Source: an uncultured Verrucomicrobiae bacterium (GTDB lineage Bacteria; Verrucomicrobiota; Verrucomicrobiia; Limisphaerales; Palsa-1400). From it: 64,000 bases of DNA. Position 1 is the first letter of the stretch, and the number at the start of each line of letters is the position of its first letter. The notes under the pieces were generated by a model that made no database searches, was not told the DNA's origin, and was given only the letters and a program-made list of their open reading frames with translations. This document shows positions 1,441 through 63,690 of this stretch, piece by piece. The position numbers and the translations under genes are program-made. Location of the stretch: contig OY969763.1 of the NCBI GenBank assembly GCA_963702845.1, positions 960,001-1,024,000 of the forward strand. Direction: 5' to 3'.

Positions 1441-2865
1441 ATGAATAGGCTTTTTATTCTCTCGGTTCTTTTGCTGGTGACCATCCGCGGTTCCAATCGT
1501 GTAAGTGCAGCTCCCACTACACCTCAGTCGCCCGGTTACAACGTCTTGTTCCTCATGTGTGATGAGCATACCCCGAAGGTCCTGGGGTGTTACGGCGATC
1601 CACTGGTGAAAACGCCGACGCTGGATTCACTGGCTGCCCAAGGGGTGCGTTTTACTGCGGCCTACTGCCAAAATCCAATTTGTGTCCCATCGCGGGTGTC
1701 ATTTGTCAGCGGGCGGATGCCATGCCATATGAATGCATTTGGTTTCCGCAACACGGATAACCAGGCCTATCACGGAATCACTACGTTGGCCGATGTATTC
1801 AACGAAGGCGGCTACAAAACAGCGTGGCTTGGGAAGACTCATTGGGGAAACCCGCGGTTCCAGGAGGTTTTGGACGTCAAAAATAAAAAAGGGGCCAGTG
1901 ACGACGGCGAAGGCCCTGAGCGTTTGCCGCAAGACGCGAAAATCGCAAGCTGGCCGGTCGAAAAAAACCCGGAGCATTTGACTGCCAATGAAGCGCTCAG
2001 CTTTCTCGACCGCAACAAGGGCAATAAATTCTTCCTGGGTATCTCCTTCGTCAGGCCGCATTTCCCGTTCATTATCCAGGACAAGTACTACAATCTTTAC
2101 AAGGGAAAGGTCACTCTGCCCCGAGAAACCCAGGATTTGATCCAGGAACTGCCTGCCGTTTCCAAGCAGGAACGGAAGCGGTATAAACACGCTCAGGCTA
2201 CGGAGGCAGATATCCTGCGCGCCAGGGCGATGTACTATGGGATGGTCACTTATGTAGACGAAGAGTTCGGACGCATTCTCAAAAAGCTGGACGAACTCGG
2301 CCTCCGCGAGAACACGATCATTATTTATACGTCCGACCACGGCGAAATGCTCGGCAATCGGGGCATCTGGTACAAGAACAGTTTTTACGATGGTTCGGCC
2401 AGCATTCCGTTTATCTGGTCTTTTCCTAAAGAGCTTCCCCATGGAAAAATCGTCACAACCGCCGCGATGAACATGGATATTTTCCCGACGCTCTGTGAGC
2501 TTTGCAAACTGCCCACACCCGCCGGGCTGGAGGGCAGTAGCCTGGTGCCGGTAATGAAAGGCACAGACGATGGAAGCGCACGTTATGCTTTGTCAGAAAA
2601 TTATCGGGACGGTTTTGCCGGACGCATGATTCGCACTGCCCAATGGAAATACTTCTTCTACAACAAAGGCGGAGAATACCTTTACGACATGCGGGCCGAC
2701 CCCGGTGAAGAAGTGAACCTCGCGAAGAAGCCCGAATTGCAACAACTCGTACAGGATTTAAAGGCGAAAGCCATCGTTGGTTGGAAAACATCGGGCAAGA
2801 CCACTGCTGTCGCGAGCGCAACGGGCGATTCGGCAAAGACCGGCGGCAAGAAAAGGAAACAGTAA
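1441..2865 (+). CDS. Secreted sulfatase (choline-sulfatase-like)
   Basis: Signal peptide, NVLFLMCDEH, formylglycine motif CVPSR, GKTHW, YTSDHG, YLYDMRADPGE. Confidence 0.9.
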   Translation: MNRLFILSVLLLVTIRGSNRVSAAPTTPQSPGYNVLFLMCDEHTPKVLGCYGDPLVKTPTLDSLAAQGVRFTAAYCQNPICVPSRVSFVSGRMPCHMNAFGFRNTDNQAYHGITTLADVFNEGGYKTAWLGKTHWGNPRFQEVLDVKNKKGASDDGEGPERLPQDAKIASWPVEKNPEHLTANEALSFLDRNKGNKFFLGISFVRPHFPFIIQDKYYNLYKGKVTLPRETQDLIQELPAVSKQERKRYKHAQATEADILRARAMYYGMVTYVDEEFGRILKKLDELGLRENTIIIYTSDHGEMLGNRGIWYKNSFYDGSASIPFIWSFPKELPHGKIVTTAAMNMDIFPTLCELCKLPTPAGLEGSSLVPVMKGTDDGSARYALSENYRDGFAGRMIRTAQWKYFFYNKGGEYLYDMRADPGEEVNLAKKPELQQLVQDLKAKAIVGWKTSGKTTAVASATGDSAKTGGKKRKQ

Positions 2866-2907
2866 CAAGAATTGCAGGATGTCGCTTCGCTGGTCGGCGA
2901 TGCCGGG

Positions 2908-4555
2908 TCAAAGCATCGTCTTTTGCTATGCAACCCGCTTGCCCCACTTGGTTCGGGAGGCGCTTGCGTCTCGATTTGCGGGGTGCCATTCCCGTCGAAA
3001 CAGCGCACCGTAAAAGTATGTTTGCCGGGCCGAAACGGCCAGTCGTAGCGCCAGATCACCCACGTCAAATCTGACAAAGGCGCTCGCAAGGCGGCAGATT
3101 TCCACGGTCCATTATCGACTCGCACCTCCACTTTTGAAATTCCACGGACGCCGGCGTGAGCGATGCCGCCGATCGGCACGCGTTTTTTCTGATCCGCCGC
3201 AACAATCGTCATGTCCACGGCGACCGTGTCGATCACCGAGGTTGCCTTCATCCGCGCCTCTTTATCCCAACCTCGCTTGACCCAGTAACCTGGTTCCCAG
3301 TGATCTGTAGCTTCTATCGACTCGATCCATTTCGGTTGCTTCATCCCATGCACATTGGGAATGTAAATGCGCAGTGGAAAACCGTGGTCCCGCGTCAAAG
3401 GCACACCGTCCCAATCGTAAGCCAGCATAATTCGCGGGTCGGCGCGAATCGCTTCCAGCGCGACCACTTCGTAAAAATCATCCGCGCTGCGAATTTTCAG
3501 ATGTGTGGCTGCGGGTTGGAGCTTCAGGTTCGGCAATATGCGGTTGAAGCTCACCCCGCTCCAACGCGTCGTGCCGATGAGATCGCCGCCAACTGGATTG
3601 GAGATGCATGAAAGAGTGATAAACTGGTGCAGCGGTTCATAACGGCGCAGTTCCTCCAGCGTCAACGACAGCGGTTTTTCAACCAGACCGTTGACTTTCA
3701 ACCGCCACGTCCGCTCCTCGACGGCGGGCGGAATCGTATTGATGTCGATTCGGTAATGCCCTTCCAACGGCGTAAATTCCCGGCGTGTTCCCGGTGCCGG
3801 TTGCACTGCGGCCTCGGCGTTCGGCAGCGCATGGGTTGCCGGACCAACGAACACTTGCGGCGCGGGCCGCCTTCATTGCCTCTTGTCGGTGCATCTCAGC
3901 CAATTGGCCGACAACCGTCCCCGCTACTGTGATCACCGCTGTGCTGCCACCCAATCGAACGAGAAACCTGCGCCGGTCCAGACGTTCTGCCGAAGCGACA
4001 CTCTCGTCTGCGCCAGCCTCAATCTCAACCGGAGGACGGGACTGCCAGCCGTTTTGCTGCCCAGCCGAGAACGATCGCCCAGGCCAAAAACGACAACAAC
4101 ACCCAGATTCCGCTCATCCACGGTCCCCAGCTTGACGTTCGACCCTGCATATTGCTGACCAGCATCGCTGGAACGCCCAGGAGAATTCCCCACGCGGTGC
4201 CGAGGATCCACGCCCGACGCCTGTTCGAGCTCCGGACAAGACAGAAGAGAATCGATCCGGCGACAACCCCGGCGACAAGGAACCCAATGACCGCCATGCT
4301 CTGTTCAGCCAATTTGGCCACCTCCGAAGTCGGCCCGATGTTGAGCGCGCGGATTACGGTCACCATTGAGCCGATGCCAAATCGGATGAAAGATCCCGGC
4401 AGCACCCGAGTCAGCGCGTCAAAGAAATCGAAAGGCACAAACGGCAATCCGATCACAGCCCATCCGAAATAGAGAACCGCAATCAATGCGACAGTGAGAA
4501 ATCCAACGACAAAAACGCCGGTAAAAATGGATTCCTTATCCCGTGAAGTTTTCAT
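2908..4555 (-). pseudogene. Membrane-anchored molybdopterin oxidoreductase (sulfite oxidase/MsrP family), frameshifted as written
   Basis: TM segment (4025-4555), then a DRRRFL helix in another frame, then the Moco domain (TLSCISNPVGG, HGFPLRI, KQPKW). Shifts near 4040, 3843 and 2920; corrected end HSKTML* at 2908. Probably sequence errors. Confidence 0.8.
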
Positions 4556-4681
4556 AAATCCTTCATTCACGTTCCTCCCAAAGCACCCTCATGCCAGTCG
4601 CTGACAGTCCGCAAGCCCGCTCCTCCGTACCGGTGTAAACCCGATTCGTCCACTAAGTCTCAAACAGTTACACTACACTTA

Positions 4682-4709
4682 TTGACATGCCGTTGCTATA
4701 CTTTATAAT
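4682..4709 (+). promoter_or_regulatory. Consensus sigma70 promoter, no protein gene downstream
   Basis: TTGACA (4682-4687), 16 nt spacer, TATAAT (4704-4709). Confidence 0.7.
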
Positions 4710-4715
4710 GTCTTC

Positions 4716-4875
4716 GGCCGCCAGTCCTTACCGGTATTCGGGAGACAGAAAACCGGATGCGCTCTTTGACAAAAGTAGAAACATTTCCTTCTACAAATCT
4801 TCTCCGCTTGGCAACTAATTGCCGGAAGTAGAAGAAGCAAAACATTCCGATGATTTTTTTGAGCGCCCCGCATCA
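4716..4875 (+). ncRNA. Putative structured non-coding transcript containing an rrn-type boxA
   Basis: Follows the consensus promoter. CCGGT..ACCGG hairpin, GCTCTTTGACAA (4761-4772), further stems GTAGAA/TTCTAC and GGCAA/TTGCC, long-range GATGCGCTC/GAGC..GCATC. Ends uncertain. Confidence 0.4.
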
Positions 4876-4906
4876 GTTACCAAAACGCCAGTTTCCAACC
4901 GGCAGC

Positions 4907-7510
4907 CTACAACCAGCTATTGCCCGGAAACTTCCGTTGCAACGTCGGTTTCAGTTTCGGATACGCGTTCGTTTTGAACGCCGGCCAGTTGAAGGTCGAT
5001 TCAATGCGTTTGCCGTCGGGCGAGCACAGCCAAAGTTTTATCGGAACCTGCCCTTCACAAATGTGCGGGTGTTCCTTCAGGGCGAAACATTCGGTGATTT
5101 TCACCTGCAACTCCGGTGAATTCGGCTCGCCATCTTCGTCGCGCGCCTGTTCGGGATAAAGTAGTTTCAATTTGCGCTCGTCCGGCCAGGTGATCGTCAG
5201 CGGCGCAAGTTCGTTGAGCCAATCCATCTTGTCTTTGCCGAACTGTTCAACGATCGCATTGCGCAACGGCGCAGCCTGCGCTTCTTTCACCAATGTCATC
5301 CCGGCAAACGCCTTCGCCAACGCGTCGCTGATTGCTTTCGCATCGAACGCCGGCAGGTCCAAATCAGGCATGGCCGCCGAGACCAGATTGACGCGCGAAA
5401 TGAACTGTTTGATCTCGTGATTCAACTGCGGCAGCTCGAAATATTGTTGTGCATACGCGTCCGCCAGGCACCGGCCGGAAGCAACGGGATCGATCTCCTT
5501 TTGGTGCTCGTGATGAATGACGAGGTCGTGGAACCGGATCAGTTTGATCGCCGTCACGCGCTTGTGCGTGCGGTCGAAAAGATGCTCGACGCGCGTTGTG
5601 ATTTGTTCGGCAAACATCTCCTCGATCCACTCGCGCTTCACCGCCGTCGCGAGCCCGAGCAAGGTCATGTTCCCGGTGCGTCCGGCGACTTCCCGAATAC
5701 TCGTCACGACGAACAACGGCGAATCTTGCACCACACTCTCGCGCATGAGCGTTCCAGAACGGCCTTCGGTTAATTCACAATCCAAGGTCCCTTGATCGCG
5801 CCGCTTGCAAAGTTGATCAATGAATCCAGCCATAATACAGCGCAGCAAAAGATCGTCCGCCGAAGGTTGATGTTCGACAGCGGAGTCTTGTTTCTGGCCA
5901 TCGTCCCTCGACCTTCGACCCTCGACCAGACTGCGCTCCGCCACCTGCAAAATCTGCTCAAACGTCTCATTAACCTGTCGGGCAATTTGCGCGTGAACGC
6001 CATATCGACGACAACGATCCAGGGTGAAGTGATTGGTCTTCGCAAACTGCCACGCGCGCATGAGCGTGTAAAAATCCGAATCCGCGCTCGCCTCAAAAAG
6101 CTCTCGCGCTTCGGCGATGTGTTTGTCATCGCGCCCAAGTCGCATCAACAAATCGCGCCCGCTCACGAGCGCCGCACACAACGCCGCAGTGGGAATGCAC
6201 TTGTGTTTCGCGGCCTCAACCAACATGCGCGAATAGCGCGGGTGCATAGGCAATCGCAGCATCTGCCGGCCGATCGCCGTTAAATCCGATAACGAGCTGG
6301 AGCTTGAAATCGACAGTGCGCCAAGAGTTCGAAGCAGGTTCTCCGCGCGCTCGACCGCTTGTGCATCGGGTTTGTCGAGCCAATCGAACTGCGCCGCGTT
6401 TTTGATGCCGAGTGAATGAAGCAGTAAAACCGTCTCGGCCAAATCACTGCGCTGGATTTCAGGCGTGTTGCGTTCCGGCCGATTCAAATGCCCGCTCTCC
6501 GTCCACAAACGGTGACACGTCCCCGGCGCAGTACGTCCCGCGCGACCCGCGCGTTGGTCAGCCGACGCCCGGCTGATCGGCTCCAGAAACAAAGTGCTGA
6601 TGCCTCGTTCAGCATCATACCGCGCAACGCGCGCCAGGCCGCTATCGACCACGTGTTGAATACCGTCGATGGTCACCGAAGTTTCGGCAACATTCGTTGA
6701 GACAATAACTTTGCGCAACGGATTTGGTGCGAACGCCAAATCCTGCTCGTCCGGTTGCAACTCGCCGTGAAGCGGAATCAAAGCCAGCTTTTCACTGCTT
6801 TTAATCGTGCGGCACGCCCCCATGGTCGCGTTGATTTCCGCCATGCCCGGCATGAAAACGAGGATGTCACCCACTTCGTTGGACTTGAGGATGCGTTCGA
6901 CTTCATCCGCCGCCTGCTCGGTGATCGGCCGCTCGTCAGGGATGTCCAGGTGCTCGATTTGCACCGGATACGAACGGCCTTCGGAAATCATGATGGGACA
7001 ACCATCCAAATACTTCGCCACCGGCTCAGCATCCAAAGTCGCGGACATCACGCCAATCTTTAGATCAGGCCGATGCGTTTTTTGAATCTGTTTGGCGAGT
7101 GCCAGAGCGACATCACTCAAAAGATTCCGTTCGTGAAATTCGTCGAAAAGTATAATGCCCACGTCACTGAGCGTGGGATCATCCTGCAGCCAACGGAGCA
7201 GAATGCCTTCGGTGACAAAACAGATACGAGTCCCGAGACTGGTGTGGTCGTCGAATCGAATTTGATAACCGACCTCTCCACCCAGTTTCACTTTCCGTTC
7301 CCAGGCGACGCGTGCTGCGACGGTTCGTGCCGCGACCCTGCGCGGCTGTAGAACGACGATGCGCTTGGTTCCGGCAAGGCCCGCATCCAGGAGCATTTGG
7401 GGGACCTGCGTCGTTTTACCCGATCCGGTCGGCGCGACCAGCACCAGCCGATTTTGCGTTCGGAGCGAGTCAACGATTTGCGAATGGATTTGCCAAATCG
7501 GAAGTGCCAT
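4907..7510 (-). CDS. hrpB: ATP-dependent RNA helicase HrpB (DEAH family)
   Basis: APTGSGKTT, QPRRVAA, DEFHER, MSATL, TNVAETSVTIDG, QRAGRAGR, and an HrpB-like C-terminus. Confidence 0.9.
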   Translation of the reverse strand: MALPIWQIHSQIVDSLRTQNRLVLVAPTGSGKTTQVPQMLLDAGLAGTKRIVVLQPRRVAARTVAARVAWERKVKLGGEVGYQIRFDDHTSLGTRICFVTEGILLRWLQDDPTLSDVGIILFDEFHERNLLSDVALALAKQIQKTHRPDLKIGVMSATLDAEPVAKYLDGCPIMISEGRSYPVQIEHLDIPDERPITEQAADEVERILKSNEVGDILVFMPGMAEINATMGACRTIKSSEKLALIPLHGELQPDEQDLAFAPNPLRKVIVSTNVAETSVTIDGIQHVVDSGLARVARYDAERGISTLFLEPISRASADQRAGRAGRTAPGTCHRLWTESGHLNRPERNTPEIQRSDLAETVLLLHSLGIKNAAQFDWLDKPDAQAVERAENLLRTLGALSISSSSSLSDLTAIGRQMLRLPMHPRYSRMLVEAAKHKCIPTAALCAALVSGRDLLMRLGRDDKHIAEARELFEASADSDFYTLMRAWQFAKTNHFTLDRCRRYGVHAQIARQVNETFEQILQVAERSLVEGRRSRDDGQKQDSAVEHQPSADDLLLRCIMAGFIDQLCKRRDQGTLDCELTEGRSGTLMRESVVQDSPLFVVTSIREVAGRTGNMTLLGLATAVKREWIEEMFAEQITTRVEHLFDRTHKRVTAIKLIRFHDLVIHHEHQKEIDPVASGRCLADAYAQQYFELPQLNHEIKQFISRVNLVSAAMPDLDLPAFDAKAISDALAKAFAGMTLVKEAQAAPLRNAIVEQFGKDKMDWLNELAPLTITWPDERKLKLLYPEQARDEDGEPNSPELQVKITECFALKEHPHICEGQVPIKLWLCSPDGKRIESTFNWPAFKTNAYPKLKPTLQRKFPGNSWL

Positions 7511-8040: not shown

Positions 8041-8117
8041 GCGCGCGTAGCTCAATTGGATAGAGTAACGGCCTCCGAAGCCGCAGGTTGTGGGTTCAAC
8101 TCCCGCCGCGCGCACCA
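8041..8117 (+). tRNA. tRNA-Arg(CCG)
   Basis: Cloverleaf: GCGCGCG acceptor stem, D arm AGCTCAATTGGATAGAG, anticodon loop CTCCGAA, GGTTCAAC T-loop, encoded CCA. Confidence 0.97.
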
Positions 8118-38769: not shown

Positions 38770-38848
38770 CCCGTTTGTAATCTACTCAGGAAGCGCCGAT
38801 TGCCAAATGCGTTCGCTTGACGGCGTCGGGGCAGGGGACTACGGTTGC

Positions 38849-38949
38849 GACGTGCGGGGAGCCTTGCCTTTTGGCGCTGGCTGAGAGTCTTCTACAAGAA
38901 GAGACCCGTTGAACCTGATCCAGGTAATGCTGGCGAAGGGATGCACGTC
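38849..38949 (+). ncRNA. TPP riboswitch, probably translational
   Basis: P1 GACGTGC/GCACGTC, GGGGAGC..GCTGAGA, CCCGTTGAACCTGATCCAGGTAATGCTGGCGAAGGGA. Downstream CCCTTTCGCC can pair either with the aptamer or with the AAAGG Shine-Dalgarno of thiC. Confidence 0.96.
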
Positions 38950-38980
38950 CTCGTTCACCCTTTCGCCGCCAAAGGAAACT

Positions 38981-62705: not shown

Positions 62706-62810
62706 AAACTAAAACATGGCTCCGGCGAGCCCGGCGTTCAACCGGAATTTCGAGGGGCTCGGCTATCAATGTCGAACAACATCCTATTAGCGGTAACATC
62801 TTTTTGTTTT

Positions 62811-62850
62811 GGTGAGAAAAAGTTGGAAAAGGTGAGAAAAGATTGGAAAA
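62811..62850. repeat. Decamer array A
   Basis: GGTGAGAAAA AGTTGGAAAA GGTGAGAAAA GATTGGAAAA. Confidence 0.85.
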
Positions 62851-62907
62851 CCTGCAATGCAACTGAACTGACTGACCCTGACCATCGCACCGCTCAAAAT
62901 AATTTTA

Positions 62908-62954
62908 GGTTCGGAATGGTTCGGTTTACCTCGGTTTGGTTCGGTTTGGTTCGG
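62908..62954. repeat. Decamer array B
   Basis: GGTTCGGAAT GGTTCGGTTT ACCTCGGTTT GGTTCGGTTT GGTTCGG. Confidence 0.9.
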
Positions 62955-63135
62955 GATCAATCGAATATTGTCCCCCCTTACCCCCCTCTGGACCCGTCAC
63001 GCCGTCCCAAGGCACGTAAACATTGATGGTGGCGGTTCCCCCACGAGCCTGACCAATTCAACCTCGGACGGTTCCGCAGGGGGAGTCATTAATAACAAGG
63101 ACCCTTTGATGCCAAAAATAAAATTTTAATTTTTT

Positions 63136-63185
63136 GGCGTTATGAGCCGTTATGAAGCGTTACAAGCCGTGATGACGCGTCATGC
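63136..63185. repeat. Decamer array C
   Basis: GGCGTTATGA GCCGTTATGA AGCGTTACAA GCCGTGATGA CGCGTCATGC. Confidence 0.85.
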
Positions 63186-63223
63186 CAAAACGGGGCGAGC
63201 GCCACTTTGGCGCAGTTTTGTGA

Positions 63224-63308
63224 TTTCAAAGAACATTCGCCTTCGCAGGCGTCCGGCATGCACCGCCGGCTGCTGCAAGGTTTAACATGAAGTTGCGACA
63301 TATGTCAA
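63224..63308 (-). promoter_or_regulatory. Sigma70-like promoter followed by a GNRA hairpin and rrn-type boxA
   Basis: Minus strand TTGACA-18-TAAACC with extended TG, CGCCT-GCGA-AGGCG (63238-63251), TGTTCTTTGAAA (63224-63235). Confidence 0.6.
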
Positions 63309-63690
63309 GCGTTGCAAGTTAAACCGATTTCGCGCGAAGGCTTCGAACCGCCGACTGGTAATCGGGGCTCGCTCCGCTCGGGGAGCAAAGAACGCGACGA
63401 TGGTCACTACGGACCTTAACAAGGGAGTGGCGGCTAACTTTATCGGCGGCGAATCTGGGAGCGTTCTGTTTTCTTGTTCGAGGACGGCAAAGCCTTTCTC
63501 TGATGCCGCCGTAAGATGATGTCTTCTGCTGACAACCGTTTTCGTCTGATGGTTTGAAACGCCTCGGTGGTGAACTCTGGGCCTCAGTGTTTTCCCCAAC
63601 AGACAAACCATGTTTATCGCTGCCGCACCATCCGTGCGAGCTAAGCGGTTCTTGGGAAACAAAACACAAACAATAGAAACTAAAACACCT

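Follow-up and report, generated by a model that had tools for sequence, protein, structure and literature searches.

A short intergenic element at positions 4671 to 4860 (+ strand) of the window, the whole stretch of 64,000 nucleotides that was analysed, was found to be one copy of a family of gene-less cassettes dispersed over the genome. In this genome (G000), a single contig (C1) of 6.03 Mb, blastn and nhmmer revealed 24 close copies of the promoter-leader, and a looser model revealed at least 58 promoter-boxA units (four with a variant boxA were added by hand and two pattern matches were dropped as spurious); a few more were found afterwards. The element, earlier described as an orphan, is thus not unique. 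In each unit a sigma70 promoter is followed by a pair of hairpins, a boxA (G.TCTTTGA.A) and at least one array of 10-nt repeats, and an ORF is absent. A literature search, incomplete in subscription papers, did not find a description of this family of boxA-headed, gene-less decamer cassettes. With somewhat less than even confidence, the cassettes are regarded as gene-less derivatives of terminase control/pac regions, with Nus-antiterminated transcription and with arrays that would bind TerS-like proteins on DNA.

Within the close subfamily, the window cassette belongs to the short form. Homology to its paralogs extends from a CTACA to a T-run, with 72-89% identity to 10 aligned paralogs. It measures 187 bp (a unit of ~190 bp) where most short copies measure 197-201 bp, because 12 nt, about one decamer, are missing. 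As stated in the preliminary description, a TTGACA-16-TATAAT promoter is situated on the + strand between two minus-strand genes (4682-4709; 12/12 matches to a predicted sigma70-type promoter, activity inferred); it is the single promoter-like site between 4400 and 5400. Its spacer holds a family motif, GYNGCWAC-like, that resembles the decamer core of module B. The predicted transcription start lies near 4716 and is followed by leader hairpin 1 (4720..4735; 89.4% of cells paired in 11 copies, 2 pairs with two-sided changes), which is damaged by an A-C mismatch in the window copy, and by leader hairpin 2 (4737..4757; 90.7% of cells paired in 11 copies, no two-sided changes). The hairpin and boxA noted earlier about 45 nt past this start were recovered as hairpin 2 and the motif GCTCTTTGACAA (4761-4772), a putative Nus loading site recognized from the logo of 54 units and the rrn spacer boxA. 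Module B (4773..4860) consists of direct and inverted ~10-nt repeats with the core GTWGMAAC and ends 3' in ACATTCC and the T-run; no family ORF was found behind it in the window cassette. The mutually exclusive GTAGAA/TTCTAC/GTAGAAG pairings reported earlier do exist, because direct and inverted copies of one B decamer are present, but each alternative is conserved in part only (81.8% and 83.6% of cells paired in 11 copies), and a structured RNA with a conformational switch is not supported. Folding of the window copy was equalled by 34 of 200 shuffles (z -1.10). At 4766-4782 the 3' half of boxA and the first decamer together look like another -35 hexamer with the promoter-spacer motif behind it, but a -10 hexamer at the proper spacing is absent.

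The convergent neighbour of the cassette is the hrpB helicase gene (4907..7510, - strand; PF08482, E 3e-17), of which a terminator-like hairpin (4886..4904, - strand) lies just beyond the cassette and outside the family. The divergent neighbour is a membrane-type ORF (4025..4555, - strand) without Pfam match, which was not found in 5 relatives with the query used, and it precedes a molybdopterin oxidoreductase ORF (2682-3854). The only Rfam matches in the window are a TPP riboswitch (38845-38960, +) and a tRNA-Arg (8041-8114, +), both ordinary, with nothing credible at the cassette.

The close subfamily occurs in two forms, the short one of ~200 bp and a long one of 336-360 bp that has an extra module and a second boxA-like site. 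A second, diverged cassette is found in the window at 62800..63316 on the - strand, with its promoter from 63308, hairpins, and a boxA near 63224-63234 followed by three other decamer modules (CATAACG, CCGAAC and TTTTCTCACC types). The earlier suggestion that this 63.3 kb unit has the same layout and belongs to an element family was correct. The family holds most of the perfect sigma70 promoters of the genome: 19 of 21 fit it, and 14 of 21 have a boxA-like motif 20-130 nt downstream. Among 147 promoter-like sites with up to 2 mismatches, 30 have such a motif downstream; a mirror window on the upstream side contained it at 1 of 147, and random windows contained it in 1.0% of cases. Promoter+boxA pairs are indeed far more frequent than expected by chance. 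The looser promoter model was seeded mostly with boxA units, which makes its boxA fraction partly circular, so that the count of 30/147 versus 1/147 is the fair test. The 58 units show no replichore bias (27 on the leading strand). In 22 copies no terminal inverted repeats were found, as inverted matches between the ends, and no target-site duplication (longest shared flank word 5.18, versus 5.10 in mismatched pairs); a 7-mer flanking the window copy on both sides is not repeated in other copies. The same REP-like repeat directly precedes five close copies (G000:C1:742501, 1825357, 2410891, 2988784 and 4243184), and the repeat and these copies look copied together.

The two leader hairpins between start site and boxA were found in most of 54 units, despite differing sequences. 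Leader folding in these units was better in the sense orientation (mean z -1.82) than in the antisense orientation (-1.39), with the sense strand better in 34 of 54 (p 0.006). In 11 aligned short copies 89.5% of cells of the named structure were paired and 4 of 26 pairs showed two-sided changes, which among related copies can arise without selection; the G-U versus A-C count in hairpin 1, 10 versus 8, is uninformative. The boxA itself is mostly unpaired (mean pairing probability 0.37, versus 0.59 for the leader, 54 units). Its logo has G at -2 in 54/54 units and A at +8 in 52/54, positions that were not in the search pattern. The family boxA has the same form as the rrn spacer boxA of the genome and fits the consensus GYTCTTTRANA on the transcribed strand; position 8 has G in place of the E. 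coli A, as has one rrn spacer boxA of the genome. According to the respective sources, the gammaproteobacterial consensus is GYTCTTTAANA (10.1101/091223) and that of B. subtilis, located behind a 5' hairpin, is AUGAUCUUUGAAA (PMC13753749), to which the close-subfamily boxA, ATGATCTTTGACA, is near. The sequence evidence supports a true boxA-type motif with a predicted Nus function. NusB and Rho families are encoded, with two matches each to PF01029 and PF07497; the NusB family matches are located at G000:C1:5110923 and 3888377, and the Rho RNA-binding family matches at 4238664 and 2028759.

The arrays have a period of 10 nt. Their 4-mer autocorrelation was 0.046 versus 0.007 in 1112 control spacers, with echoes at 20, 30 and 40, and 154 intergenic arrays were found at lag 10, compared to 9 and 4 at lags 9 and 12, respectively. 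Of 161 arrays, 68 have a family promoter at most 900 nt upstream (expected 4.8%); 93 of the 161, in 59 clusters, have no family promoter upstream, and an oriented boxA is present in 5 of these 59 clusters. Examples of these clusters on G000:C1 are 812624-813540, 1556487-1557650, 2353632-2354175 and 3530919-3531372; several of the promoterless arrays make up a recurring multi-module unit of their own, which has a different head. Modules after boxA consist of 2-5 imperfect repeats and then an A/T tract; by a crude score, this tract was located 3' in 52 of the 67 arrays scored downstream of family promoters. At least 15 module types, labelled by our own naming, occur in mixed combinations across units, and module B was present in 29 of 57 units scored. 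Module B was found in this genus alone (2 of 31 genomes searched). A GTDB-wide scan for its core gave 36 scattered matches in unrelated taxa, approximately at chance level (estimate near 70), and a strict scan of viral contigs, which shows little, gave no match. With a strict pattern, a metagenome scan yielded a single locus; it belongs to the family and carries the same types of module.

Several observations connect these modules to terminase genes. The genome harbours 14 TerS-like loci. The TerS-like genes match phrog_426 (4 of 4 tested), the best one scoring just under the PF11985 cut-off, and are directly followed by TerL (5 of 5 tested). The proteins have a helical N-terminal domain of the TerS type, a class known for DNA binding. 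A fold search with a model of the protein (pLDDT 66) gave no PDB match at E 0.001, and in a viral fold library the matches were to an unnamed protein (E 4e-4), to a DUF3486 protein (E 0.02) and, at weak scores, to TerS entries. Arrays are adjacent to 36 of 80 TerS-like genes, compared to 25 of 1500 random genes. Five module types of boxA units are the same as sequences immediately upstream of a TerS or TerL ATG; they include the A/T tract but no longer have the start codon: the CCGAAC type precedes the TerS at C1:4753204, the TTGCGG type that at C1:3108455 and the TTCGACC type a TerS-like gene of G002 (C433), and the CATAACG and AAAAAGATGTT types precede TerL. Family-type promoters without boxA lead into TerS-like genes or their first codons. 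Back-to-back boxA units were found at 9 of 80 TerS-like genes, in G000, G002, G012 and G013 (three genera), and carry module B in G000 and G002; a divergent boxA is missing at the other 71, and a boxA on the gene's own strand was found at none of the 80. Module B was never found before a terminase ORF (26 pattern matches examined), so that its link to TerS rests on the back-to-back units and the spacer motif. After removal of the overall similarity between the proteins, array similarity did not follow the predicted recognition helix (partial rho 0.06, p 0.20, 38 arrays). TerS relatives were not found in viral contigs with one query, in a strict scan that shows little.

Other arrangements of these genes were encountered as well. 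Promoter-leader-array cassettes without boxA are located at G000:C1:428405, 790924, 1483538, 2409493, 2976067, 3447464, 4247648 and 4389626, and several of them hold at their 3' end only the first dozen TerS-like codons. Broken TerS copies and start-codon stubs are present. In a head-only island (L213, G000:C1:5239830-5251132), protease and major capsid genes stand behind a family promoter and are followed by adaptor, portal, a split TerL and a TerS remnant. One TerS subfamily has in common another upstream control sequence, which includes a long palindrome, and has its array at the TerS-TerL junction (G000:C1 274146, 2131472, 2185139, 2302052 and 2760855, and also in G001 and G002, loci L089, L172 and L177). 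At four loci (L100-L103, in G017, G021, G041 and G046) tandem TerS-like genes or remnants have a decamer array between them.

It is proposed that the family originated from the control and packaging-signal region of Mu-gp27-like terminase cassettes. RNA polymerase would make a short non-coding RNA from the cassette promoter, and NusB-S10, loading at boxA, would shield this RNA from Rho and so allow transcription through the arrays. On DNA, the arrays may form multivalent, helically phased pac-like or operator-like sites for ring-forming TerS-like proteins. Module B, of which the core is found again in the promoter spacer, would link the cassette to the protein that controls the promoter. Recombination between copies may account for their dispersal and for the exchange of modules, probably aided by terminase-directed packaging of cassette-bearing DNA. 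Counter to the proposal stand the array similarity that does not follow the recognition helix, the absence of module B before terminase ORFs and the 71 of 80 TerS-like genes at which a divergent boxA is missing. A more far-reaching version, possible but rather doubtful, is a DNA-packaging address system embedded in the host, in which TerS-like paralogs would read 10-bp phased barcodes and some 60 Nus-protected cassettes would display mixes of these, either as packaging starts, through which the chromosome could be transduced from many points, or as decoy RNAs for switching the expression of terminase.

Binding of the decamers could also take place on RNA. TerS-like rings would then block terminase translation at the same repeats in the 5' UTRs, and abundant boxA-protected RNAs would titrate the rings, each module mix addressing several paralogs in the way of CsrB/RsmZ with a different protein. 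We consider this unlikely, though worth weighing. The fit of 19 of the 21 perfect sigma70 promoters to the family is in agreement with it, and it is kept alive by the strict retention of boxA, an RNA signal, by the one polarity of the modules with their 3' A/T tract, and by the arrays directly before TerS and TerL start codons. The DNA model alone gives no account of boxA retention. On the other hand, the array period equals that of the DNA helix, and the downstream arrays fold equally well on both strands (z -1.61 and -1.62); together with the many arrays predicted to be untranscribed, of which few clusters have an oriented boxA, these properties favour binding on DNA. The DNA-binding class of the N-terminal domain argues in the same direction, and hairpin 1, being uninformative, gives the RNA model no help.

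Comparison with relatives showed where such units occur and how they turn over. TerS-like genes were found in 29 of 30 genomes of the bacterial family, most of which have more than one, and in 4 of 30 other genomes. The promoter-boxA pattern is enriched in the family and hardly so elsewhere: it gave 125 matches versus 32 in the control in the 30 family genomes, and 42 versus 33 in the 30 others. G002 has the same module library as G000, and G006 and G024 have the same layout with another operator and other decamers. Blastn of the element itself in 40 relatives gave only short, chance-level matches, and two DNA sequencing runs gave only short pieces from relatives and left the element uncovered. 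For 14 units of G001 and G002, a G000 unit lies beside the same downstream gene in 7 cases and none in 6, with 1 unplaceable; the upstream gene often maps elsewhere. In the 7 shared-site units the leader or module set differs from that of the G000 unit. Presence and absence of units together with replaced content fit gain, loss and recombination between copies.

The same turnover has been considered as a sign that the cassettes are selfish or relic repeats, remnants of satellite-like terminase elements whose number has grown through recombination and gene conversion, of no use to the host and with promoter and boxA kept through recent copying only. Presence/absence between congeners, the broken TerS copies and start-codon stubs, and the damaged hairpin and deletion of the window copy would agree with this. 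It is nevertheless judged improbable: boxA and the two-hairpin layout survive in unrelated leaders, in other genera and with other operators, which is hard to square with mere debris, the length of the short form is held at ~200 bp, and sites are common to species while their content is replaced.

A cis-acting, antiterminated promoter for the adjacent gene, here producing a long antisense RNA to hrpB, is very improbable. No intrinsic terminator was found on the + strand downstream of the window cassette, and boxA would favour read-through. However, the genes flanking and downstream of the 58 units are unrelated and lie in the same orientation in 32 and in the opposite orientation in 26 cases (gene calls by a crude script), and no unit was found behind hrpB in 5 of 5 relatives, which have other genes there. 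The dedicated antisense transcript to hrpB that had been suggested is therefore not supported: flanking genes face either way, which makes the antisense position incidental, and read-through into hrpB may be a side effect at most. A known RNA (6S, SRP or a leader) or a stranded rrn leader is hardly credible, despite the promoter-hairpin-boxA order that it would have in common with the rrn leaders of PMC13753749, since no Rfam model reached its gathering score (best E 2.9, opposite strand) and the single rrn operon, at C1:3.83 Mb, is not among the blastn matches listed. With no ORF and no Rfam match, the cassette is, as first described, an unannotated, gene-less predicted transcription unit.

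BoxA antitermination is known from rRNA, lambdoid phages, suhB-type leaders and CRISPR arrays. In this genome boxA heads some 60 gene-less units holding most perfect sigma70 promoters, and their content is a shuffled repeat library that terminase genes also have, a pairing that is found family-wide. Should the arrays be packaging signals, the chromosome would carry its own many-site addressing for gene transfer; should they act as RNA, they would represent a sponge of a new type, directed at a phage-derived protein. It has long been an open question whether small terminases recognize repeats or the bending of DNA, and the natural collection of TerS paralogs and arrays offers a way to test this.

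Compared to known systems, the family fits none of the rrn leaders, Rfam families, MITEs, CRISPR arrays and CsrB-type RNAs. CRISPR arrays were considered and rejected: the decamers are imperfect, head-to-tail and without spacers, instead of identical repeats with unique spacers. Sponge RNAs such as CsrB and RsmZ also repeat a motif in a non-coding RNA that occurs before start codons; the motifs of the family, in contrast, differ between modules and are not GGA loops, and the genome, rated 89.8% complete, has 0 PF02599 matches for a CsrA/RsmA partner. Like MITEs, REP, BOX and Correia repeats, the units are short, multi-copy, intergenic, found in either orientation, polymorphic between species and modular, but they have no terminal inverted repeats or target duplication and do have a promoter, a boxA and 10-nt phased modules that also occur at terminase genes. 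SaPI/PICI phage satellites redirect packaging with a TerS of their own. Stand-alone TerS genes beside putative packaging signals, and one head-only island with the same promoter type, are reminiscent of these satellites; the 190-bp units, however, are singly scattered and have no integrase, replication or capsid gene.

With the rrn antitermination leader (hairpin and boxA, with NusB-S10, NusG and NusA) the family has the sigma70 promoter, 5' hairpin and boxA in common, and boxA leaders are also found ahead of suhB and CRISPR arrays, as described in PMC13753749 and 10.1101/091223. No rRNA follows the cassette; some 60 dispersed copies are followed by decamer arrays instead of rRNA, CRISPR repeats or a gene. 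In content the family resembles the SPP1/SF6 pac and the Mu gp27 family (PF11985/phrog_426), with direct repeats over the TerS promoter and start, the TerS-TerL order and the helical N-terminal domain. PMC4737164 describes direct repeats of SPP1 pac that span promoters and the TerS start, and a DNA-binding domain of SF6 TerS that shows little specificity for the repeats of pac; according to PMC9611059, most systems show weak binding of TerS to pac. Both of these binding properties speak against the proposed role of the arrays on DNA. An adjacent array, to be compared with the repeats of an SPP1-type pac module, is present at 36 of the 80 TerS-like genes, and the window copy is without a gene. 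Unlike SPP1, the chromosome harbours at least a dozen divergent TerS paralogs, mostly without prophage, and the arrays are detached from these genes, multiplied, mixed and placed behind a Nus boxA, which differs from the SPP1 'boxA' repeat.
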